Of a stretch of DNA of 27,784 nucleotides, positions 3,782 through 27,439 are shown in pieces. Positions within the stretch are counted from its first letter, which is position 1. Every line of letters starts with the position of its first letter. Origin of the DNA: a virus (lineage: Duplodnaviria; Caudoviricetes); IMG/VR virus record IMGVR_UViG_3300036833_000118, positions 1 to 27,784 of that record, one strand, 5' to 3'. The notes beneath the pieces are model-generated. The model was given only the letters and a program-made list of their open reading frames with translations, made no database searches and had not been told where the DNA came from. The position numbers were made by a program, and so were the translations under genes.

Positions 3782-5822
3782 GGGGGCCTCCTCCTGCTAG
3801 CCGCAGAATGTCATTCACGCCAAGGGCTCTTGCCAGCGGATTGTTGGGATCGGGCATCTGTTTTGGCAGCCCCTCCATCGGGTCTTGGGTCGGCCGCCAC
3901 GATCTGGCCAAATCGGCGCCGACCGGTTCCCCTCTGCGATCCTCGACATTTGGGCTCTGTCGCCAGCCGGGATAGGCGGTATTGAACTGGCGAGCCTGCC
4001 TCTGGGCATAAGCTTCAGCCGCCAGTAGCTGGGCGGGACCGGCCAACCGTGGCAGCGGCTGCAACAGCGAGGCGCGGCTCGCTTCCGGCACGCTGTAGCG
4101 CTGGACGCCGCCTTTGTTGATCCTGTTGTAGCGCGCCATCAGATTTTCCGGTGACGGGCGAAGGTAGTCCCGGGCGAATAGCTTTGCCGCATCCTCGGGC
4201 GTGCGGGCATTGTTCATGGCCTGCCATAGCTGCGGATAGTTCTGTTTGAGGTTGGCAGCGAGGAACTGAGTTTGCAGTTGTGGATCGCGCCAGTCCCGCC
4301 CGTTCAGCCAGCGCGCGTAGTTGTTCCACTCGTCGCCGCCCTCCTGATAGAGCCCGTGCGCATTGTTCGCTTCGGTGCCCCGGAACTCGGGGTGATTGGC
4401 CTGATCGGCGATCGCGACGTTGCTCGGGTTAAAATCGCTCTCGGCCCCGACGTTGAACAGGATGCCCTGAATGGCATTGTTGCGGGCTCCACTGGCGCGC
4501 AGCGTGTCGGTGACAATCGGCGTCACGGCGGTTCTGCCGGTCGGCATGGTACCGTCGGGCTGCCGGCTCGGAGCGACTGCTGCCGCACCGCCGCCCAAAG
4601 GCCGCCGCGTGCCTGCCTCCAAGCCTCCGCTCGGCTGTCCCGAAGCATCGACCGGCTGCGTTGTGACGCGCGTTGGTGCTGTCGTACCCGGTGCCTGACC
4701 GGGCGGTCTCGGCCGTGGGGGTATCTGGCCGGGTGCTCCGGGCTGACCGGATGCCCCGACGCGGTTGCCCTGCGCATCGACCAGTCCCTGACCGGGCACA
4801 AAACGCATTCCGGGAGGCGCTGGTGGGAAATTCATCGGATTGGTGCCCGGAGGTGCGGCTTGCCCTTGGGCGAGCCACGGAGCTCCCTGACCGCCTTGCT
4901 GGCCTCCCATGCCGGGCATGCCGGGCACGCCACCCATCCCCGTCATGTCCTGCACGAGCTTCATCAGGGACTGGGGATTGCCCGACATGATGCCCAAGAT
5001 GTCGCTGATGATGTTGCCGGTCCCCCCAGCGCCGGGAAAACCACCTTGACCGGCTGCGCCAGTCTGTCGTGTGCTTGAGGGCAGGGTCGTGGCCGCTCTC
5101 CCTTGCGCCGGAGGGCTCGTCTGCGCAGGGCCGGGGCTGGGGGCCGCGTCCTGCGAAGCCGAAGGATCAGTTGAAGTATCTGGAGGAGTACCTGCGGAGG
5201 GATCGGCGCGCTGACCGTAGTTTGGCCATCCGGGTACGTTGCCGGTATAGCTTGGAACCTGCATCTTGTTGCCGGCGACATCCTGCGCGGATGTTTGCGC
5301 CCAGTCCGGCAACTGTACGCCACCTGCCGGTGCCGTTTGCACGGGCGCCTGCTGTGCCGTTTGCACAGGCACCTGCTGTGCCGTCCAGCCGGACGGCCCG
5401 GCGACATTCGGCTGTTGCGCGGGCGAGAACGGTCCCTTGCTGGTGTCCATGGCCGCGACTGATGGCGGCACTGGCGTAGGCGCCTGCTGCGGCGCCTGCG
5501 GCGCCTGTGGCTGCGGCGTAGGGTCCGGTCCCGTCTGGGTGCCGGCCGGCGTGCTGCTCTGCTGGCCGCCAAGGTCTTCGGTGCCGGTCGGGCCAATGCC
5601 TGACTGATTGCCGGTGATCGCGTCCATGGCGGTGGTCGATCCGGTTGGGTCGAACACTTGCGAGAAAGCCTGATCGCCGCCGGTCGCTAGCCCGTCGGTG
5701 CCGGTGCCGGTGCCGCCAAATCCTGTAAGCGCACCCAGAGCGTTGCCGGCGCCGCCGGTCAAGCCACTCAACAGCGAGCCGAGACCGCTGCTGCCGCTGC
5801 TACCATCAAACAGGGTGCCCAT
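3774..5822 (-). CDS. Virion ejection protein with phage tail-type lysozyme (Phage_lysozyme2-like) domain
   Basis: C-terminal GILFNVGAESDFNP...AHGLYQ...QTQFL...TPEDAAKLFARDYLRP matches the tail lysozyme pattern. Low-complexity G/Q/P N-terminus. Confidence 0.75.
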   Translation of the reverse strand: MGTLFDGSSGSSGLGSLLSGLTGGAGNALGALTGFGGTGTGTDGLATGGDQAFSQVFDPTGSTTAMDAITGNQSGIGPTGTEDLGGQQSSTPAGTQTGPDPTPQPQAPQAPQQAPTPVPPSVAAMDTSKGPFSPAQQPNVAGPSGWTAQQVPVQTAQQAPVQTAPAGGVQLPDWAQTSAQDVAGNKMQVPSYTGNVPGWPNYGQRADPSAGTPPDTSTDPSASQDAAPSPGPAQTSPPAQGRAATTLPSSTRQTGAAGQGGFPGAGGTGNIISDILGIMSGNPQSLMKLVQDMTGMGGVPGMPGMGGQQGGQGAPWLAQGQAAPPGTNPMNFPPAPPGMRFVPGQGLVDAQGNRVGASGQPGAPGQIPPRPRPPGQAPGTTAPTRVTTQPVDASGQPSGGLEAGTRRPLGGGAAAVAPSRQPDGTMPTGRTAVTPIVTDTLRASGARNNAIQGILFNVGAESDFNPSNVAIADQANHPEFRGTEANNAHGLYQEGGDEWNNYARWLNGRDWRDPQLQTQFLAANLKQNYPQLWQAMNNARTPEDAAKLFARDYLRPSPENLMARYNRINKGGVQRYSVPEASRASLLQPLPRLAGPAQLLAAEAYAQRQARQFNTAYPGWRQSPNVEDRRGEPVGADLARSWRPTQDPMEGLPKQMPDPNNPLARALGVNDILRLAGGGPRV
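5330..5384. repeat. Imperfect 24-bp tandem repeat encoding QQ(V/A)PVQTA
   Basis: gtgccgtttgcac(g/a)ggc(g/a)cctgct, about 2.3 copies. Confidence 0.75.
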
Positions 5823-17214: not shown

Positions 17215-18933
17215 TCATCCCCGCTTCCGTCCAGCCTTCCCCGCCTGCTTGTGCTGGCCGATCCCGATGACGTCGCGTACCAAGTCCTCCTGCTTCTGCT
17301 CTTGCGCAGCCTTCGCCTGATCTTTCTGGCGCTGCCGCAAACGGGCGAGCAGCAGTTCGGCGCCCGGCGGATGCAGCATGTGGATCAGGTCCTCGCTGTC
17401 AATGGCGCCGGCCCGGGCGAGTGCGATCGCCACTTGCCGGTTGTCCTCGGCGAATGCCGGCGAGGCCGAATGGCTATCGACCTGCACTTGGAACCCTTCC
17501 GGCATATCAACCAAGGTGAACTCGGTTCCCTTGTCGGTGACGTAGATCGAGGCGTCCATGGCCTGCATGATGCGGAGCGCGAGATATCCGCTGGTGGCAA
17601 GCTGACGTTCAACGCGAGCCGCTTGATCGATCAATCGGGGGGATGATGTCCGAACCAACGTCTGCGCGTGAACGCCAGCACGCACGCCCGGCTCGCCCTG
17701 TCCACCCATGATTGGCGAAAAACCGGATGCCTCGTCAAACAGCTTGAACAGGAACTCCAGTTCCTGAAGATAGTTTTCCGGCGGCGGTTCGACCAGCTTC
17801 GACGCCTTGGCGTTCGGGTTGGGGTCGTTCATGAAGCCGCCTTCGTTGATGATCTTGAAATATTGCTCCTCGGTCACCGACGTGAAGCCGGAAAGGACCT
17901 GCGGCGCATTGACGTTGCGGTCCCACATCACCTTGATGTCACGGAGCCGCTTGGTCAGCACGTCCTGCAACATCTGCACATCGGCGACCATGGAGCGGCC
18001 CCAGAAGTAGCCCGGAGTGGCCTGCGCCTGCACCTTGATGAAGGGCTGGTGGCCGGGGACGCGCGAGATGTTGCGGCGCTGGTTTTCGCCTTCGATGATG
18101 ATCATCTCGGGGCCGTAAACCGCCTGAATTGTCGTATAGTCGCCCTGTCGCTTGCTGTCCTTGACCCAGAGTTCGCAGAGTTTCACCGTCGGCTGGAATT
18201 GCTGTTGCGGTCGCCACGGGGTCGGGACCGGGAATACGTTGACGATGCCGGCCGCCGATGGCTGATCGCCAACGTCGCCCAGCGGCTGGAGGCCGCCGAC
18301 CACCATCTGGTGGAAGTAGCTCGGTTCCATCTCTTCGCGCTTGGACGGCGAGGCGTCGAGGATGCGCTCGAAGATCGCTTTCTTCTTCGGGTGGTCGATA
18401 TCCTCCAGTATGGAGCGCAGCCGCGAGATCGTCGGATAGCTGACGTGGCAGAACGCCTCCTGCTCATCGAGATCGAGCACGGTCTCGGACATGACGCCGA
18501 AATTCTGCGGATGCACGGGCGCGAGCTTGAAGCTGCCATGATCGGACGGCATGTGCTTGAGCAAATAGCAGCCGTTGACCAGCGACCACACCGTTGCCTC
18601 GGCGAAGGTGATATCGCTGTCGGTCTGGCGATAGTCGGCTGTCAGCTTTTCGCTTGTCACCTGCGCGCGTTCGAGCACGTCCTCGGGTTCGGTGCTGTCG
18701 AAGATGATGTTGAAGCGCACATCGGTCGGCTGCATCAGGAAGCCGGCAAGGCGATCGATGAACGGTTTGATCTTGTTGTAGATCGCCGCCTGCGAGCTAT
18801 AGGTGCCCATGTAGTAGTATTGATTGGCGCGGGTGTAGACGAGGCCCCGCTCTTCTGACGAGGCCATGGTCTCGTCAACAACTTCCTTGGTCCACTCTTC
18901 GAGTTCTTGGTTATTCTCCGGGATACGCAACAT
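17215..18933 (-). CDS. Portal protein
   Basis: 572 aa from MLRIPENN; IYNKIKPFID, FWGRSMVADV..LQ motifs and a Q-rich C-terminal helix; located between terminase and scaffold. Confidence 0.85.
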   Translation of the reverse strand: MLRIPENNQELEEWTKEVVDETMASSEERGLVYTRANQYYYMGTYSSQAAIYNKIKPFIDRLAGFLMQPTDVRFNIIFDSTEPEDVLERAQVTSEKLTADYRQTDSDITFAEATVWSLVNGCYLLKHMPSDHGSFKLAPVHPQNFGVMSETVLDLDEQEAFCHVSYPTISRLRSILEDIDHPKKKAIFERILDASPSKREEMEPSYFHQMVVGGLQPLGDVGDQPSAAGIVNVFPVPTPWRPQQQFQPTVKLCELWVKDSKRQGDYTTIQAVYGPEMIIIEGENQRRNISRVPGHQPFIKVQAQATPGYFWGRSMVADVQMLQDVLTKRLRDIKVMWDRNVNAPQVLSGFTSVTEEQYFKIINEGGFMNDPNPNAKASKLVEPPPENYLQELEFLFKLFDEASGFSPIMGGQGEPGVRAGVHAQTLVRTSSPRLIDQAARVERQLATSGYLALRIMQAMDASIYVTDKGTEFTLVDMPEGFQVQVDSHSASPAFAEDNRQVAIALARAGAIDSEDLIHMLHPPGAELLLARLRQRQKDQAKAAQEQKQEDLVRDVIGIGQHKQAGKAGRKRG

Positions 18934-19147
18934 GGTCTTGCCAAATCCAGTGTCCGAGGTGGAAATTATAGCTACTGTAGCCGATCCTCGGCAGCACGTC
19001 GCTGTCCAGCACGTCCTGAAGCGGCGGGTCCGACGCGATCGCGATGACGTAACGCGTGCGCGGCCACGACAGGTGTTTTCCGTTGTAGGGGCCGCCGGTG
19101 CAGTGTCCGTGGTACTTGCCTTCGCTCTGTCCGATGTTCTGTTCCAT
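18911..19147 (-). CDS. Hypothetical protein (CTGGPYNG motif)
   Basis: SD GAGGG; GGPxxG motif common in small phage proteins. Confidence 0.6.
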   Translation of the reverse strand: MEQNIGQSEGKYHGHCTGGPYNGKHLSWPRTRYVIAIASDPPLQDVLDSDVLPRIGYSSYNFHLGHWIWQDHVAYPGE

Positions 19148-19157
19148 GTTTCCCTCA

Positions 19158-19616
19158 CTACCAGAGTTTTATCATTCGCCTTTTTGATGCTTCGATCAAG
19201 TCGGGTTCCGCCCCGCTCTTCAGGTTTGCCTGTAGCACGTCGAGACCGTTGCCGTACTTCAAACGGCTCTGCCGCCCGGCCGCGACCGCCTGTTGCAGCG
19301 TCTCCTGTGCCGCCGACCATGTCGAGGCCGGGACGTTGGCTGTCGTATCCTTGTAGCGCACCTTGGTGCGGTCGCCCTCCTTGCGCCCCACGGTCATGTC
19401 GCTGACATGGTAATCACTTGACGCGATCTCCTCAGCGAGGGCGTGTGCGCGTCCCGTGGCCGATCCGCTAAGTGCGACGGGTCGAAATTCCTGTCTCATA
19501 GACCGCTGCGCGCACATCGGACATTCCGGCGCTGGATCGTCAATCTGATCCATTGACAACGTCACATCCATCATGTGCATGCAATCTTCACAGGCGTAGG
19601 TGCGGACGATGGGCAT
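19158..19616 (-). CDS. FmdB-like zinc-ribbon protein
   Basis: MPIVRTYACEDC...PECPMC. Confidence 0.75.
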   Translation of the reverse strand: MPIVRTYACEDCMHMMDVTLSMDQIDDPAPECPMCAQRSMRQEFRPVALSGSATGRAHALAEEIASSDYHVSDMTVGRKEGDRTKVRYKDTTANVPASTWSAAQETLQQAVAAGRQSRLKYGNGLDVLQANLKSGAEPDLIEASKRRMIKLW

Positions 19617-19618
19617 GG

Positions 19619-19891
19619 CTACAAGGTCAATTCCTTAATGATCCACATAACGCTTTCCTCCAGCGAGGTGAGGGCTAGCGCTTGATAACGGAGCGAGCCC
19701 GGGACGTTCTCAGCCTTCGGCATCACTTTCGCATAGAGCGTTTCCAGTTCTTCGGCCTTGGTCTTGATCTGATCGTGCAGCGCCTTCTCATCGTTGGTCA
19801 GCGCGCGGTAGCGCGGCCGGAAGCGTGAAGTCGCCAGCTTGACATCGTCGCTCTGGCGAGCATCTGGTTCACCTTCGTAGACATTCGGCAT
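19619..19891 (-). CDS. acb2: Acb2/Tad1-like nucleotide-signal sponge (putative anti-CBASS/anti-Thoeris)
   Basis: YRALTNDEKALHDQIKTKAEEL...RYQALALTSLEESVMWIIKEL resembles the Acb2 YRxLSxEE..N.K and R..AxAxTxL..xxM hairpin; 90 aa. Confidence 0.68.
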   Translation of the reverse strand: MPNVYEGEPDARQSDDVKLATSRFRPRYRALTNDEKALHDQIKTKAEELETLYAKVMPKAENVPGSLRYQALALTSLEESVMWIIKELTL

Positions 19892-20291: not shown

Positions 20292-22084
20292 CAGAATTTC
20301 TCGTGTCGTTGTCTAGCCTTCCGGTTGATTTCGGCCATCTTCTGGCTAAAGGCGAACGAGAGCAGGGTGCCCGGGTCTTGCGGCGGTCGCTCGCCCTGAA
20401 CCGCGTCCCACGTCAGTTTCCTCGCGATCAGTCCGGGCCGCCGCCACTCGATCCACGCATGATGCGCCAGAACCAGCGCCGAAACCAGATCATCGTTGAC
20501 GCCGGTATCGGGGCCGGCGCCGATCCAGCCGCCGTCCTCGATGATGGCCTGTAGCTGCTGCACCAGCCGGGGCGATCTGATTTCGACGCGCCGCAGCATG
20601 AGACTGTCGCGCACTTCCGAGTAGACCTGATGCTTGTTGTCCTGATTGGCCTTCCACGCGATGACGTTGCCGGCGCCGCCCAGCGTGTCGGGCCGCTTGT
20701 ACAGGAACCAGCGCACCGCGCCGATCATGTCGAGAATGCTGCCCGTGCCCGGGTCGCCTTGCAGGATGCCCTGCTCCGCAAGTTGCCGCAGATTGCGCAC
20801 CTCGGGGAGCACGGCCGCGCCGACGCCGGTCACTTCGAGGTTGGCGAGGTGATCCCGGTACGCGCCGGCCATGTGCGCCAGCACCCATGCGAGTTGATAG
20901 GTCAGCGGGCGGTTGGTGCGAAACTCGGCGACCTGCACCACCTTGTCGGCATAGCAGCGCAGCACCTGAATGGCGTGGTCGTTGGCGTCACCGCCGCCGC
21001 CGCCGGACGGATCGACGCCGATGGTGTAAAGGCCGTCCGGCACAGGCGGCTCGTAAACCCGGAGCATGGCCTCGTCGCGGTCGGATGTCGGTTCGATATG
21101 CGAACCAAGGAACGTCTCCTCGAAAATGTACTTGTAGCCCTTGTACGGCGCGCCCTGCGCCAAGTGCTCGCCGATTTCCAGCGTGCGCTTCGCGGGGAAG
21201 AAGCCAGAGCCCGACGCGATGAAGCATTCGCGCTCATGCCACGGATAGTGCCGCAGCATGTATTCTTCAGCCCTGAACTCGTTCTCGCGCCGCCACCACG
21301 CGATCTGCTCTGGCTTGATCGTGTGTCCATAGTTCTGCTTGACGTAGCGCGCTCGCTCGATCTCGTCCTCGGTCAGATGACCGTCCCAGTAAATCTTGTA
21401 GTCGGGATCGTTCTTCGGGATGCTGTAGGTCGGGTTGGCCCAGAAGCCGATGAAGATGAACCGCATGTGGCGGTCGGCCTTGGCCTGCTGGCAATGATTG
21501 TAAAACCAGTTGAAGCCGTTGGCGATGCTCTCCCAGATGTAGAGCCGGTGCGGGTTCTGCCGGGCCAGCGACGCCTTGAGACTTTCGACGCCGGCCAGCG
21601 ACTTCCACTGCGCGCACTCGGTGGCGTGCATCATGTTCAGCGCACGCGACGCACCGAGGTCCGGATTGGACGCCGCAGCCATAAGATCGATGACAGAGCG
21701 GTTCGCAAAAGCCATGCCAGAGCGATTGTTCTGTATGAGCTTGTGCTCCGGGCCGCGCCATTCATCAGGTAGAGTTTCCAGAAGGCTCGCAAATATGCGT
21801 CTAAGGCGCTCAAGATTATCCGTTCGATCGGCAATGATCGCACCTTGCACACCTTCGTTGGCCAGCGCCCAGAACAGTTCGATGACGGACGATACTGTTG
21901 TGATGGCGACTTGTCGGCACTTCAGGATGACGAACTCGTGGACGCCTTCTTGCAGCCCGCGCGCCACCGCGTCGATGACGATCTTCTGCGATGGCCACGG
22001 GTCGATGTGACAGCGACCTTCCTCCTTGGTATCGAGTTCGACACTTGACAGAAGGTCATATATCCCTTGGCGGATTGTTGCCAT
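20291..22084 (-). CDS. terL: Terminase large subunit
   Basis: VILKCRQVAITT (Walker A region), MMHATE (Walker B), WESIANG (coupling motif), IGVDPSGG and NDDLVSA (RNase H-like nuclease). Confidence 0.92.
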   Translation of the reverse strand: MATIRQGIYDLLSSVELDTKEEGRCHIDPWPSQKIVIDAVARGLQEGVHEFVILKCRQVAITTVSSVIELFWALANEGVQGAIIADRTDNLERLRRIFASLLETLPDEWRGPEHKLIQNNRSGMAFANRSVIDLMAAASNPDLGASRALNMMHATECAQWKSLAGVESLKASLARQNPHRLYIWESIANGFNWFYNHCQQAKADRHMRFIFIGFWANPTYSIPKNDPDYKIYWDGHLTEDEIERARYVKQNYGHTIKPEQIAWWRRENEFRAEEYMLRHYPWHERECFIASGSGFFPAKRTLEIGEHLAQGAPYKGYKYIFEETFLGSHIEPTSDRDEAMLRVYEPPVPDGLYTIGVDPSGGGGGDANDHAIQVLRCYADKVVQVAEFRTNRPLTYQLAWVLAHMAGAYRDHLANLEVTGVGAAVLPEVRNLRQLAEQGILQGDPGTGSILDMIGAVRWFLYKRPDTLGGAGNVIAWKANQDNKHQVYSEVRDSLMLRRVEIRSPRLVQQLQAIIEDGGWIGAGPDTGVNDDLVSALVLAHHAWIEWRRPGLIARKLTWDAVQGERPPQDPGTLLSFAFSQKMAEINRKARQRHEKF

Positions 22085-22289
22085 CAACGTCGCCCGCGTT
22101 CGGGGTTCCCGGTTCGGCCACTCTAGCGTAAATGTTCCCGGCGCGTCTACGGAAGCCGCCAGAGATGAACTGCGGCGGGGCGGGCGGCCGGCTCTGCGCT
22201 TCTAGCAGGCTGGCGATCCGGCGCAGTTCCAAAAGGATCGCGTGCACATCACCGGTCCCGATATCGGGTGGAAGCTGTCCCATTTGCAT
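22056..22289 (-). CDS. Hypothetical protein upstream of terL
   Basis: SD AGGAG; 77 aa. Confidence 0.6.
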   Translation of the reverse strand: MQMGQLPPDIGTGDVHAILLELRRIASLLEAQSRPPAPPQFISGGFRRRAGNIYARVAEPGTPNAGDVDGNNPPRDI

Positions 22290-22311
22290 CTCCTGTCATC
22301 ATGGCTATATT
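22284..22311 (+). promoter_or_regulatory. Candidate sigma70-type antisense promoter
   Basis: TTGCAT-N16-TATATT directly upstream of two hairpins. Confidence 0.45.
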
Positions 22312-22317
22312 ACACAT

Positions 22318-22392
22318 CTGCTGACCACGGTCAGCATCTCCACTATCAGACTTCTTGCCGTCGGCTTGTTCCTCGACAGCCGACGGCTTTTT
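22318..22392 (+). ncRNA. Candidate antisense small RNA with anti-Shine-Dalgarno linker
   Basis: 5' hairpin tgctgacc-ac-ggtcagca (22319-22336), 20-nt linker tctccactatcagacttctt, then a terminator hairpin with T5. Confidence 0.5.
22357..22392 (+). terminator. Intrinsic terminator, antisense to the coding strand
   Basis: gccgtcggct...agccgacggc 10-bp stem followed by TTTTT. No U-tract follows the stem on the minus strand. Confidence 0.65.
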
Positions 22393-22394
22393 CG

Positions 22395-22619
22395 TCACAC
22401 GACCTGCCAGTCTTTCGCGAGCAGGTCGCTCTGCGAGCACAGCCACGGCACCAGATCGCTTTGGACTGTCCGGATGTACACATAGGGCAGCGTCATCTTC
22501 GAGCCGTCGTCGGGAACCTGCAATTTCAGATACATTTCCTTGCCGTTCCATCCGGAGCGAGCAACGCGCTTGCCGCTCCGCAACTGCTCCACTGCCCAGC
22601 CAATGTCGTCGTCTGCCAT
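22395..22619 (-). CDS. tad2: DUF2829 / Tad2-like protein (putative Thoeris anti-defence sponge)
   Basis: IGWAVEQLRSGKRVARSGWNGKEMYL...PWLCSQSDLLAKDW signature; SD AAGGAG. Confidence 0.85.
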   Translation of the reverse strand: MADDDIGWAVEQLRSGKRVARSGWNGKEMYLKLQVPDDGSKMTLPYVYIRTVQSDLVPWLCSQSDLLAKDWQVV

Positions 22620-23107: not shown

Positions 23108-23310
23108 TTACAGACCTCGTACTTGATCCGCCGGCAGATTGCCCTAGCACGCTTGACGTCGTCGAGTGCCTTGAATTCGTCCGGCAAGGCCGCCATGGTT
23201 TCGTCAAGCATGTCAGTGACGTCAAGCAGCATGCTGATCAAGGTCTCGTTTTTTACTTCGAGCGTTTTGAGACGATCGCGCATCTCTAACAGTTGTTCTT
23301 CCGACTTCAT
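23104..23310 (-). CDS. Hypothetical coiled-coil protein
   Basis: ATGA coupling at 23307-23310; GAGG SD. Confidence 0.6.
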   Translation of the reverse strand: MKSEEQLLEMRDRLKTLEVKNETLISMLLDVTDMLDETMAALPDEFKALDDVKRARAICRRIKYEVCK

Positions 23311-23555
23311 GATCGACCTCTCGCTTCTGGCGGATACGTAACGCCCTCGCCGAACTTCCATTCAAAAACCGTGCAGTCGCCGTCATCGGTGATGATGACG
23401 CGATCCACAATGCCGTGCCGCGCCGCCACGTTGTGGGTGTAATGGTGCGCGACCTCGACCGCTTGCTTGGCGTCAACGAAGCGACGCACGTATTCATACG
23501 TACCATCCTCGAAAAACTGGCACACTGAAAATTTCTCGTCCGTCTCGTTATCCAT
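23307..23555 (-). CDS. Hypothetical early phage protein
   Basis: SD GTGGAGA; FSVCQFFEDG..YEYV...RVIITDDGDC..FEW. Confidence 0.75.
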   Translation of the reverse strand: MDNETDEKFSVCQFFEDGTYEYVRRFVDAKQAVEVAHHYTHNVAARHGIVDRVIITDDGDCTVFEWKFGEGVTYPPEARGRS

Positions 23556-23567
23556 GCTCTCTCTCCA

Positions 23568-23987
23568 CTATTGCAGCAGGTCTGACAGCTTCAGCAAAAC
23601 GACGGAAAAGCGTCCCGCGTCGCCGCCATGTTCGCGATGCTGTCCGGCTTGGTAGGCTGCTCGCGCCAGTTCTTTTAACCGTTCGACCGGCAGCATCAGA
23701 TAGAGCAGCGTCCTGCCGTCCCGGCGCAGTTCATGAACCCAGTAATCAGCTTCCGTCGTTGCGATGCCGGATGGCTGGCCGTCACAGGCGTATTCGATCG
23801 CGATGTTGCCGGTCTGCTCCCATTGCCACGTTTCCGACTTCAACTCGATTTTTTCAATATTGGCGGCGCAGAAGATTTCAGCCAAGCATCGCTCCCGGAT
23901 CAAGGCGTCCGACAGTTGCAGATCGAACTTTCGATCTCGGTTGAAAATGATCTTGCCGGTAAACGGATCGCGATCGGGCTCTGCCAT
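23568..23987 (-). CDS. PD-(D/E)XK-like phage protein
   Basis: FDLQL...IELKSE...TGNIAIEY...PSGIATTEADYW pattern; SD GTGGAGA. Confidence 0.6.
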   Translation of the reverse strand: MAEPDRDPFTGKIIFNRDRKFDLQLSDALIRERCLAEIFCAANIEKIELKSETWQWEQTGNIAIEYACDGQPSGIATTEADYWVHELRRDGRTLLYLMLPVERLKELARAAYQAGQHREHGGDAGRFSVVLLKLSDLLQ

Positions 23988-24090
23988 GATACGTCTCCAC
24001 TACTGACCTAATTGAACCGGAATTTTTTTATTTTTTTGTAATCGAATTCCGACTGAAATTTTTTTTGGGATTTTTTTTGTCAAGTGTTCC

Positions 24091-24119: not shown

Positions 24120-24223
24120 GGGGCGGATGCCAGCGGGCGCAGTCTGACCGCCGCTTGGGGACGGCGAGGAGGGGCGCCCGCTGGCTTTCGGCAGTCCGTC
24201 TGCCGTCCCTTATGGCCCTCCTC

Positions 24224-24782: not shown

Positions 24783-24968
24783 TCAGCCCTCCTTCACGCC
24801 GGGGCACGCGGCCACCAGCGCCCGCAGTTCGGCGTCCGACTTTCCCGCCTTGATCGCGTCGCCAAGCACATCACAGAGCTTGGTGATCGAGAGCATCGGG
24901 ATTTGAAAACCGGCGATCGCGCGCGATATGCGCGCCTCCGCCATCTTTCGTGAACGTGCTGTAGACAT
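24783..24968 (-). CDS. Hypothetical protein
   Basis: SD GTGGAG-A7-TG start (MSTARSRK). Confidence 0.65.
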   Translation of the reverse strand: MSTARSRKMAEARISRAIAGFQIPMLSITKLCDVLGDAIKAGKSDAELRALVAACPGVKEG

Positions 24969-25113
24969 TTTTTTCTCCACTGTCAGGATGTAAAGACGAC
25001 TAGCTTACACGGCAAATAGCCAAAAGAATTTTTTTCCGCAGGAATAATTTTTTTTTGCCTTCAAGTTTCCTTGAACCGAGGCTGGCGGCCCCGGCCCCGG
25101 CCCGGCCACCGCC

Positions 25114-25146: not shown

Positions 25147-25380
25147 TCAGGAGTGAGTGTATCCGTCAGGTTCGATCCCGAGCCACATGCCGCGCCATTC
25201 GATCATGACGCAACCCGGGCCGGGATGAACGCGGCGGCGAAACCGCCGCCATTGGATCGTTGTGACCTTGACGTGACCACCTTTGAAACTGTCCCGATAT
25301 CCGGGACTGATCCAATTTGGAAAGTCGCGCTGGAACACCCGGAACAACGCGACGCGTTGCGCTCGCGTTAGCGGGGTCAT
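25147..25380 (-). CDS. Hypothetical phage protein (C-terminal GMWLGIEPDGYTHS)
   Basis: ATGA coupling; 77 aa. Confidence 0.7.
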   Translation of the reverse strand: MTPLTRAQRVALFRVFQRDFPNWISPGYRDSFKGGHVKVTTIQWRRFRRRVHPGPGCVMIEWRGMWLGIEPDGYTHS

Positions 25381-25778
25381 GGCTTTTTGCCGTGGTAATG
25401 ATACGCCACATCGGCCGCAGTCTCGAAGACGTTGTGAATAACTGGCTTAACCGGTCGCGCGTCGCTGGCCCATGCCTGCACCTCGTGCATCATGGCGTTG
25501 AACGTCGCGCCGTCAATTTCGCCAGCGTCTAGCATCTGGCCTAGCCAGACCGAAACGAGGAACACGGTTCCGTCAATCGCCGCGTCCGGACTGTCTGAGG
25601 TCTCGCGTTTTGCAAGCTCTCGCTCCCGGTCTTGAATTCGCCATTCGGCATCGCGACGTCCGTTCTTGAGACCGCTACTGCGGAAACATGGCCAGCACGC
25701 CACAAGCCCGGCATCCTTCGGGCCGTTGCACAACGGGCATAGGTGGTGCGCTCTTACGCGCGGATTATCGATTTTCAT
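25377..25778 (-). CDS. Zn-finger-containing hypothetical protein
   Basis: CPLC...CWPC; SD TGGAG before MKIDNP. Confidence 0.65.
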   Translation of the reverse strand: MKIDNPRVRAHHLCPLCNGPKDAGLVACWPCFRSSGLKNGRRDAEWRIQDRERELAKRETSDSPDAAIDGTVFLVSVWLGQMLDAGEIDGATFNAMMHEVQAWASDARPVKPVIHNVFETAADVAYHYHGKKP

Positions 25779-25818
25779 TGTTGTTGCTCCATTATCAGAC
25801 CGCCAAAATTGGCTAATG

Positions 25819-25862: not shown

Positions 25863-26951
25863 TCAGTTGGCCGCAAGTTCCAGAACCTTGCCTGCCACGC
25901 GTTCGAATTCAACGCGCGTATCTTGATGCGGGATCGATCGGGCATAGGCAGTCGCGGCCGTGGTCACGTCCCACAGGTTTTCTATCGGGCGATCTTCCTC
26001 CGCTATGTGCAACGCCTTGAGCGGCTCGACTTTCGACGCGCCGAACCGCTCTCGCAGGAACGCGTCCAGATGGTCCTTGTCCAATCGCTTGTCCCGAGCC
26101 TGTTCGATCGCATTCACGACCGATGACGCGGAACCGTTCGCATAGGCGATCAACGCGGGTTGCATCTCATCAAGGTAACGATCGGGAGCCCCGCCAGTGT
26201 GACGAATACTGACTTGCTTGTATTCGACAGCACCCCAAACGATCCGGTTGGCGCAGACGTAGTCGAAAAGGAACGTCGCCATTCCGAACGTCTTGGAACC
26301 GACTTCACTGTTCCACATGAACATGCCGCGCGCCACACTTCCCATCTGCCCGTTGCGGCGGTTCGGAATTTCAATCCGGTTGTGCTCGTCTGCGAGGAAC
26401 ACGAATAAATCCCGGTCGCTCGCGTAAAGCGTCGTATTGGCTTTCGTCACTGCAACAGCCTTGCCGAATTCGCCGGGAACCTTCCAGTCACCGCTAACCC
26501 CATCGCCGAACCGCTGTACCAGCGTGTCGAGAATGTCCGAGTTCCAGATGCGGCCGTAATTAGGTCCGGTCGCAGCGCGCACGATGTTCTCACCGCCGTT
26601 CCGCGTCAGGATGCCAACTTCTTCGACGTCTCGCGAGAACTGTAGGCCGTAGTTGACGCAGTCCGCCGCAAGCGGCGCCGGCAGTTTCGACAGATAACCG
26701 GCTGGCGCTTTGGCCAGACTGGCCAACTGCCCGAACGCCCAATTGGTGGGTTCGTAAGCCTCGTCTCGCACATCGACTAACATCCCGGTGTTGTCGATGG
26801 TTGGAACGCAGCGCAACCGGCTGGTACGGACGACCGATTGGTGGCTGTTGTCGCGAAGCGTCTCGAAATGCCGGCGCATATCGATCAACGAGGTAAAACG
26901 TTCATCGTCAGGCCGTGACGCCCATTGCTTGGAAGCTTGCATAAGTTCCAT
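25863..26951 (-). CDS. DUF932-like phage/plasmid protein
   Basis: WNSEVG...FDYVCANRIV...IRHTG...NLWDVTTAAT pattern; SD GTGGAGA. Confidence 0.75.
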   Translation of the reverse strand: MELMQASKQWASRPDDERFTSLIDMRRHFETLRDNSHQSVVRTSRLRCVPTIDNTGMLVDVRDEAYEPTNWAFGQLASLAKAPAGYLSKLPAPLAADCVNYGLQFSRDVEEVGILTRNGGENIVRAATGPNYGRIWNSDILDTLVQRFGDGVSGDWKVPGEFGKAVAVTKANTTLYASDRDLFVFLADEHNRIEIPNRRNGQMGSVARGMFMWNSEVGSKTFGMATFLFDYVCANRIVWGAVEYKQVSIRHTGGAPDRYLDEMQPALIAYANGSASSVVNAIEQARDKRLDKDHLDAFLRERFGASKVEPLKALHIAEEDRPIENLWDVTTAATAYARSIPHQDTRVEFERVAGKVLELAAN

Positions 26952-27032
26952 GGTAAATCTCCACTCTGGTTAGGAACGCTCTGGGAGTGGCGTTCCGTGC
27001 TAGGCCGGATCAACCGGCCTAGTGTCGGAACG

Positions 27033-27218
27033 TCAACTGAGCCGTGACGGCTCGTTAACAGGGTCGTCGCATTCGATGACGCGGGTTTCTCGAACCGCCG
27101 TCCATCGATACGCCAAATCGCTGACATACAGTTCCGCTTCCGCTCTCGTTTCAAAACGCAGTGCATTGCCGCACCAATTGCCGGAACTGTCAGCGATCAC
27201 TTCAGGTTTGAAAGACAT
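27033..27218 (-). CDS. Small hypothetical early protein
   Basis: SD TGGAGA; MSFKPEVIADSSGNWCGNALRFET. Confidence 0.7.
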   Translation of the reverse strand: MSFKPEVIADSSGNWCGNALRFETRAEAELYVSDLAYRWTAVRETRVIECDDPVNEPSRLS

Positions 27219-27439
27219 AGTCAGATCTCCATTGTTAGGGTTTCAGTTTCATCACGGGCATTGCAGACGCGATATTCCTTCCACCGCTCCGCTTTGTCGT
27301 GACTGAGGTTCCAGAGGCGCTCTTAACGCTTGGCCAGTACTAGGCGCCCTATGCGAGATTGCGGGGTCCGTTCCCAATAGTCGCGCTGCCAACGCGTCTG
27401 CGGCGATCAACTCCAAAGGCGCACTACGCGCCCATGGTC

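Follow-up and report, generated by a model that had tools for sequence, protein, structure and literature searches.

A predicted antisense small RNA at the early/late gene border of a phage genome, with a seed matching the ribosome-binding sites of its own early genes

The window, i.e. the whole stretch of 27,784 nt that was analysed, is a single virus record in which 38 genes were called, all on the minus strand, the strand that the gene calling covered; gene and start calls come from a simple hexamer-plus-Shine-Dalgarno (SD) caller, which has the SD score built in. Profile searches place terL, a major head protein and a tail lysozyme to the left of position 22,395, and DUF932, a Tad2-like gene and small genes without assigned function to its right, and from this gene content we take the former to be late and the latter early. 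Two anti-defence-like genes are found, one with an Acb2/Tad1 hairpin domain among the late genes (19619-19891) and the Tad2-like gene, last of the early ones. Several related contigs measure 40-43 kb and no near cultured relative was found (best matches of 36% for both terL and the capsid). The host hints are weak and point to Alphaproteobacteria: the product of gene 23568-23987 has relatives in Pelagibacter and Puniceispirillum phages, and DUF932 in an Erythrobacter phage. A single terL match is on a MAG contig of 5 kb bearing the title Terracidiphilus; this contig may be a binned virus. A search restricted to tyrosine integrases (PF00589) returned none in five related records, one of them rated 100% complete, and on this thin basis a lytic role is more likely than one in immunity. 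The features of the early/late border are as follows.

22056..22283, minus strand: first putative late gene (gene call, 75 aa), overlapping terL
22284..22289, plus strand: predicted -35 box TTGCAT, falling between RBS and ATG of the first late gene, which is on the opposite strand
22306..22311, plus strand: predicted -10 box TATATT, 16-nt spacer from the -35 box, +1 predicted near 22317-22318
22319..22336, plus strand: 5' hairpin of 7 bp with a 4-nt loop (folding), variable in sequence among relatives and absent in some
22337..22356, plus strand: single-stranded linker with the candidate anti-RBS seed UCUCCACUAUCAGAC, unpaired in the MFE and centroid structures
22357..22392, plus strand: terminator-like hairpin and U-tract, the latter on the plus strand only, abutting the tad2 stop codon
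22395..22619, minus strand: last putative early gene, Tad2-like (tad2; PF11195, E 1e-24)

The first late gene has no match in Pfam and PHROGs (as a 77-aa form) or in NCBIfam (as the 75-aa form) and has a single relative, at 75%. An earlier note had proposed that the gap between this gene and tad2 encodes a phage small RNA, made of a promoter, a 5' hairpin, an open linker and an intrinsic terminator, and sequence and folding place all these parts exactly where it had put them. The element overlaps no called gene. The 77-nt plus strand folds into two hairpins with the linker open between them (-33.3 kcal/mol, z -6.07, matched by none of 200 shuffles), and the linker sequence CTCCACTATCAGACT is kept in two relatives (L003 and L005; L-numbers label the loci of relatives) though their stems differ. 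The predicted RNA would measure about 75-77 nt in the window, and 50-95 nt would be expected across the clade. Individually, two of the parts are less conspicuous: the promoter TTGCAT-N16-TATATT is there, but such boxes alone are no more frequent in the window than expected by chance (7 sites vs 3.7 +/- 2.3), and the terminator, a hairpin at 22357-22387 followed by T5 at 22388-22392, was not called by a simple terminator scan of the window. Taken together, the general traits of a trans-acting sRNA, a promoter and an intrinsic terminator without a reading frame, are predicted to be present. The linker faces six early RBSs, whose matched positions are exactly as numerous as had been claimed:

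23562..23571, minus strand: RBS of gene 23307-23555, 10/10
23994..24002, minus strand: RBS of gene 23568-23987, 9/9
24974..24986, minus strand: RBS of gene 24783-24968, 12/13; part of the match may go untranscribed owing to a weak promoter immediately upstream
25787..25800, minus strand: RBS of gene 25377-25778, 13/14, the best duplex
26957..26965, minus strand: RBS of the DUF932 gene 25863-26951, 9/9
27225..27238, minus strand: RBS of gene 27033-27218, 11/14, the weakest candidate target (-9.2 kcal/mol, about background)

The motif CTCCA[CT]T or CTCCACT occurs nine times on the plus strand of the window (in the element, at the six RBSs, at 4487 and at 22587). Within the window, the linker pairs with the 13 early starts 4.4 kcal/mol better than with the 24 late starts, a preference that was reached by none of 1000 shuffled linkers, and again by none of 1000 when the CUCC core was held fixed. 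An exception among the late starts is that of gene 18911-19147 (19155-19170), which pairs with the linker at -17.8 kcal/mol, as well as the early targets do. The motif is missing at 7 of the 13 early starts, leaving six matched genes. Of the six targets, five are preceded by an intergenic gap or by the end of the contig; genes in this position also give the stronger signal in the clade as a whole (11/25 clusters vs 4/25).

The early region contains further structured DNA. Seed-matched early genes are preceded by structured intergenic modules of 70-85 nt, both here (26955-27032) and in L003, L004 and L005, as well as in L008, L012, L066 and L166; each genome of the L008 clade has several copies of one module (TGAACG, a variable hairpin, CGTTCA). 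These modules are possibly RNA processing sites and presumably resemble the RNase III sites of T7. An imperfect inverted repeat at 24990-25010 (TGTAA...TTACA), kept in L003 and possibly an operator, overlaps a weak predicted promoter and lies 18 nt before the ATG at 24968. A second long plus-strand hairpin with a short T-run (24140-24200), kept in L003 and L005, adjoins an A/T-tract region with a predicted minus-strand promoter.

To follow the element among relatives, terL searches yielded 80 viral, 80 metagenomic and one MAG locus, partly duplicates, from which 130 loci were examined: the window and 129 others that include the start of terL and 300 nt or more ahead of it. An antisense unit of promoter, optional hairpin, linker and terminator lies ahead of the first late gene in 81 of them, the window included, corresponding to 48 distinct elements in 38 clusters. 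The U-tract served to pick the elements and is therefore not independent evidence, whereas the promoter pattern played no part in the selection; TTG-N3-N16-18-TA occurs at the right distance in 46 of the 48, compared with rates of 7.5% in random antisense windows and 15% in shuffles, and 25 of the 46 have an extended -10 TG (L130 and L176, in which the pattern is absent, were left out of later tests). The two boxes keep their spacing while the start codon of the late gene shifts relative to them, which argues for the antisense orientation of the promoter. The strongest upstream hairpin begins at -3 to +4 of the predicted +1 in 20 of the 41 elements that have such a hairpin. On a MAFFT alignment of 13 elements, RNAalifold recovered six terminator pairs, three with two-sided change; the 5' hairpins stayed unaligned there and their covariation was assessed by inspection. 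Neither the stems (G-T to A-C 34:23, not significant) nor whole-element folding (antisense strand favoured in 24/46 vs 19) assigned the strand. No candidate element was found in 49 of the 130 loci, several of them with long upstream DNA (one, L062, was missed by the filter). A sequence-only model gave at most one weak match in the 32 element-less loci searched and none in the 16 DUF932 loci searched; over 49 sources it returned the window, a weak match in L053 (E 0.05) and two chance-level matches. The conserved architecture of a small-RNA gene, as judged from these comparisons, is in all probability real.

The relatives also allowed the match between seed and early leaders to be scored. The accessible windows of 46 elements were compared with 376 early and 483 late starts, accessibility being considered for the element only. 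Among the 29 clusters with at least five early starts, 13 have early starts that rank the element of their own phage within the top tenth (p 1.4e-6); the late starts used as a control did so in 6 of 30 clusters (p 0.07) and, with a Wilcoxon p of 0.012, are not quite flat. Mean energies were -9.7 kcal/mol for own early, -8.3 for foreign early, -8.2 for own late and -8.1 for foreign late starts, and the window element ranks first of 44 for its own early starts. A test restricted to the linker is weaker (top tenth 10/35 early vs 3/30) because in one clade (L008-L012, L036, L066, L166) the seed, UUGCUCUCCU, sits in the terminator loop, with early starts that read AGGAGAGCA. An identity score of at least 8 was reached by 104/683 own early, 1300/30421 foreign early and 22/880 own late comparisons. 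Individual motifs behave similarly: GGAGAGC is found at 48/90 early and 3/86 late starts where the element has its complement (nine elements, L006 included) and at 3/286 early starts of the other 37, and GTGGAG at 27/120 early and 1/134 late starts with a complement against 8/256 early starts without.

Single loci illustrate how far the seeds differ. The element of L028 (TCCTAACAGGAG) matches its own early leader at 12/12 positions, those of L025 (CATAGTGGAG) and L106 (CTAAGTGGA) match an early start of their own phage, that of L007 (TACCCGAAACGG) does so with one G-U, the match of L010 (TAGACCCATG) spans the start codon, and L003 shows a 12-nt loop match to one gene. One early family has different leaders in L006, L007, L010, L028, L036 and L106, and each of these leaders is matched by the element of its own phage; over early gene families in general the own element was better in 83 cases and worse in 45. 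In reciprocal tests between near neighbours, the own element was favoured at early starts in 13/15 (p 0.004) and 12/15 pairs (p 0.018), and at late starts in 9/15 and 10/15; the pairs were picked by hand, some from open forks, and one of the late values is a single gene. The covariation of seed and early SDs that the earlier note had called for is thus seen as an own-phage match, but with few independent contrasts: kin share both traits, and on a terL tree of 35 rows the two motif traits yield only 2-3 independent pairs, which is not significant. Moreover, the L019/L060/L064 clade has an early motif of its own, GGAGCA (15/28 starts), without an exact complement in the element. From sequence comparison, it nevertheless appears likely that the small RNA pairs with the early RBSs of its own phage.

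Other features of the elements deserve mention. Those of L019, L060 and L064 are short (48-57 nt) and lack the 5' hairpin. Many elements from different clades share a TTGGG or TAGGG motif a few nucleotides ahead of the terminator (e.g. L007, L008, L012, L025, L106, L177); in some it matches ACCC-rich start-codon bases, and in others it has no visible target. The hairpin-linker junction holds an 8-mer (22332-22339 in the window) that is identical to the first late gene's RBS region (22286-22293) in the window, L004 and L005; its third base differs in each of the three and the match is not general in the clade. The first late gene was rejected as a general target (top tenth in 6/46, p 0.56).

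We propose that the element encodes a trans-acting anti-RBS sRNA that would act as a brake on the translation of a subset of early genes, an explanation that we hold to be the best available and reasonably probable. The host sigma70 polymerase would likely transcribe the predicted RNA convergently with the early operon, protection would come from the 5' hairpin and the terminator, and the exposed seed would cover the extended SD of the leader genes in trans, thereby blocking their translation; as the RNA accumulates during infection, early output would fall while late expression begins. Host sigma70 transcription, pairing in vivo and repression are all inferred. The timing of action is the most speculative part of this reading: a sigma70-type promoter would fire early, which suggests a brake that builds up and does not require a switch activated late, and a delayed brake fits as well as the early-to-late switch suggested by the earlier note. 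The interpretation given in the earlier note survives in part: conservation and covariation argue well for an antisense sRNA gene with a seed matched to its own phage's early RBSs, which would reach 6 of the 13 early genes in the window and not the whole early regulon.

Several features could also be explained if the shared motif were the binding site of a protein, either on DNA, like a stoperator, with one orientation shared by the early genes and the early/late border, or on mRNA, like the sites of RegB or RegA, the copy in the element being just one more site. On the DNA, the element copy and the six targets indeed point the same way. Furthermore, the matches show no wobble bias: the internal mismatches of the two best window targets are C-A, a caveat already raised in the earlier note that holds clade-wide, with G-U to A-C ratios of 9:11 inside matches (1:6 in the window's cluster) and of 29:49 at their flanks, vs 107:218 in foreign pairs. 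The T4 RegB consensus, GGAGRAYARAA (PMC3014915, excerpt), also recalls the many early starts here that are A-rich behind GGAG. However, the matches sit in predicted unpaired RNA, 7-mers being enriched 5.0-fold in unpaired parts, 1.2-fold in stems and not at all in promoter DNA, and the seed lies in the linker in one clade and in the terminator loop in another, while single elements (L003, L010, L025, L066, L166) carry several unrelated seeds, some over the start codon of one gene. A protein site also leaves the conserved antisense promoter and U-tract unexplained, and no repressor, RegB-like or RegA-like family was found in 40 window proteins, a set to which about one third of a 42-kb genome, lying outside the window, would not contribute. 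We thus find this explanation unlikely.

A unit acting only in cis, in which the convergent promoter and the hairpin would stop or weaken read-through from the early genes into the late operon and the seed would be the relic of a duplicated leader, seems slightly less likely still. Such a unit would suit the position of the hairpin, which in 29 of 46 elements follows the last called early stop codon at a distance of 3-18 nt. In its favour, too, a search of the window from tad2 to the late genes gave no further terminator on the sense strand, early leaders are often repeated modules and some elements have no seed match. Yet a relic would not track the present early RBS motif of each phage nor form an exact complement of 8-13 nt in a loop, and the U-tract is absent from the sense side in 45 of 46 elements. 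Alongside its sRNA role, the element may also act in cis where the early operon ends.

It is quite improbable that the real targets of the sRNA are host mRNAs and that the match to phage RBSs reflects a generic anti-SD core. The anti-SD seeds of rhizobial AbcR1/2 do reach hundreds of mRNAs (PMC8844928, excerpt), but the early preference of the window linker is lost when CUCC is kept and the rest shuffled, and the specificity for own over foreign starts persists once the generic SD effect is subtracted. Finally, it is very improbable that the motif is an orphan RBS belonging to a minus-strand gene that is lost or tiny: its orientation is that of real RBSs and a GTG at 9 nt opens a 7-codon frame in the window, but an ATG follows the element GGAG by 4-12 nt in only 3 of 48 cases, against 27.5% of 2500 sense GGAG (true RBSs included), and no frame is conserved.

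The element bears comparison with the start-associated sequences (SAS) of cluster K mycobacteriophages, extended RBS repeats of non-structural genes that occur in one orientation and were proposed to be an RNA or protein site (PMC3203893, excerpt). SAS are also found in cluster EF Microbacterium phages (PMC7302621), and their function is still described as "not known" (PMC11373665). The window likewise has an extended RBS repeat in one orientation, with six copies at early RBSs and none on the other strand. The SAS is a near-invariant 13-mer, whereas the motif of the window clade, 9-14 nt long, varies and differs between relatives. In four K1 phages a single SAS copy is reversed and has no gene attached to it (PMC3203893, excerpt); we count 16 forward and 1 reversed copies in Adephagia and 14 and 1 in Curiosium, and in both the coding strand has a long hairpin whose 10-nt loop is the reversed copy (Adephagia, L182:30600-30750; Curiosium, L181:32342-32490; related loci, L183-L192). 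In Adephagia late transcription is reported to start between genes 92 and 93 (PMC11373665, excerpt), which is the site of this hairpin. The cluster K complement of the SAS thus lies on the gene-coding strand at the late transcription start, whereas here it would belong to an antisense unit of its own. The hairpin region is present in 193 mycobacteriophage records, and in 12 aligned phages 11 of 33 pairs show two-sided changes, a count reached in 0 of 500 shuffles, the structure being derived from the same alignment. The prediction that loop and SAS covary failed, as the SAS is the same in the seven phages examined while the loop drifts: an exact complement is found only in the two K1 phages, a partial one in Amohnition, Cain, Fefferhead and Shandong1, and the loop is lost in MacnCheese and Hurricane, of which MacnCheese keeps 18 SAS copies. 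As a parallel case, the cluster K hairpin is a mixed lead rather than support. That phages widely use an RNA counterpart of RegB, in which a single sRNA at the early/late border reads a private extended-RBS code of the early genes and switches off the whole class, and that this would also explain the SAS of K1 phages, is tempting to speculate but rather doubtful. It does offer a concrete hypothesis for repeats unexplained since 2011, testable in a cultured phage.

Known regulatory RNAs resemble the element in part. Rfam gave no match at gathering score in the window and two chance-level matches at E <= 10 around the element. The rhizobial AbcR1/AbcR2 and NfeR1 act on many mRNAs through short, independent anti-SD seeds in a loop and between stems (PMC8844928, excerpt), and the element similarly has its anti-SD seed in a loop or a single-stranded linker. 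However, AbcR RNAs are chromosomal, encoded beside lsrB, bind Hfq and target host transport and metabolism genes, whereas the element lies between the phage tad2 and the gene before terL and its seeds vary with the leaders of its own phage; in view of this location and of the Rfam result, we rejected an AbcR-type identity. The c4 RNA of P1/P7 (about 77 nt) pairs through its loops with RBS regions of its own mRNA with variable specificity (PMC5320573, excerpt), so that size, phage origin, RBS pairing and variable specificity are all shared. The element differs in having two hairpins, a predicted promoter of its own and several early targets that are unlinked; c4 forms three stem-loops, is released by RNase P from a longer transcript and acts in immunity and lysogeny, and a c4 identity was rejected in the absence of an Rfam match and of three stem-loops with a'/b' loops. 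Lambda OOP, aQ and P22 sar are short phage antisense RNAs that set developmental timing (PMC12197685, excerpt), each described against one target gene, whereas the element has several distant ones. The main-text parts covered of that 2025 review of phage sRNAs contain no comparable case, and a literature search that left most subscription papers outside found no phage sRNA silencing several of its own early genes; a 2020 paper called the function of sRNAs in lytic phages "less obvious" (PMC8244752).

The closest functional parallel is a protein. In T4, RegB, with S1, shuts down early mRNAs class-wide via the GGAG of their Shine-Dalgarno sequences (PMC3014915, excerpt), and the likeness with RegB and RegA lies in this shut-down of the early class through the RBS. 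RegB cuts RNA and reads bases 3' of GGAG, whereas the predicted reader here would be an RNA, the window motif is extended on the 5' side of GGAG and close relatives use different codes. Class-wide early shut-off through the RBS is thus known from T4, where a protein performs it; if our proposal is true, an sRNA would act in this way on several early genes of its own phage, and a seed that covaries with a private RBS code in dozens of phages would provide ready-made compensatory alleles.
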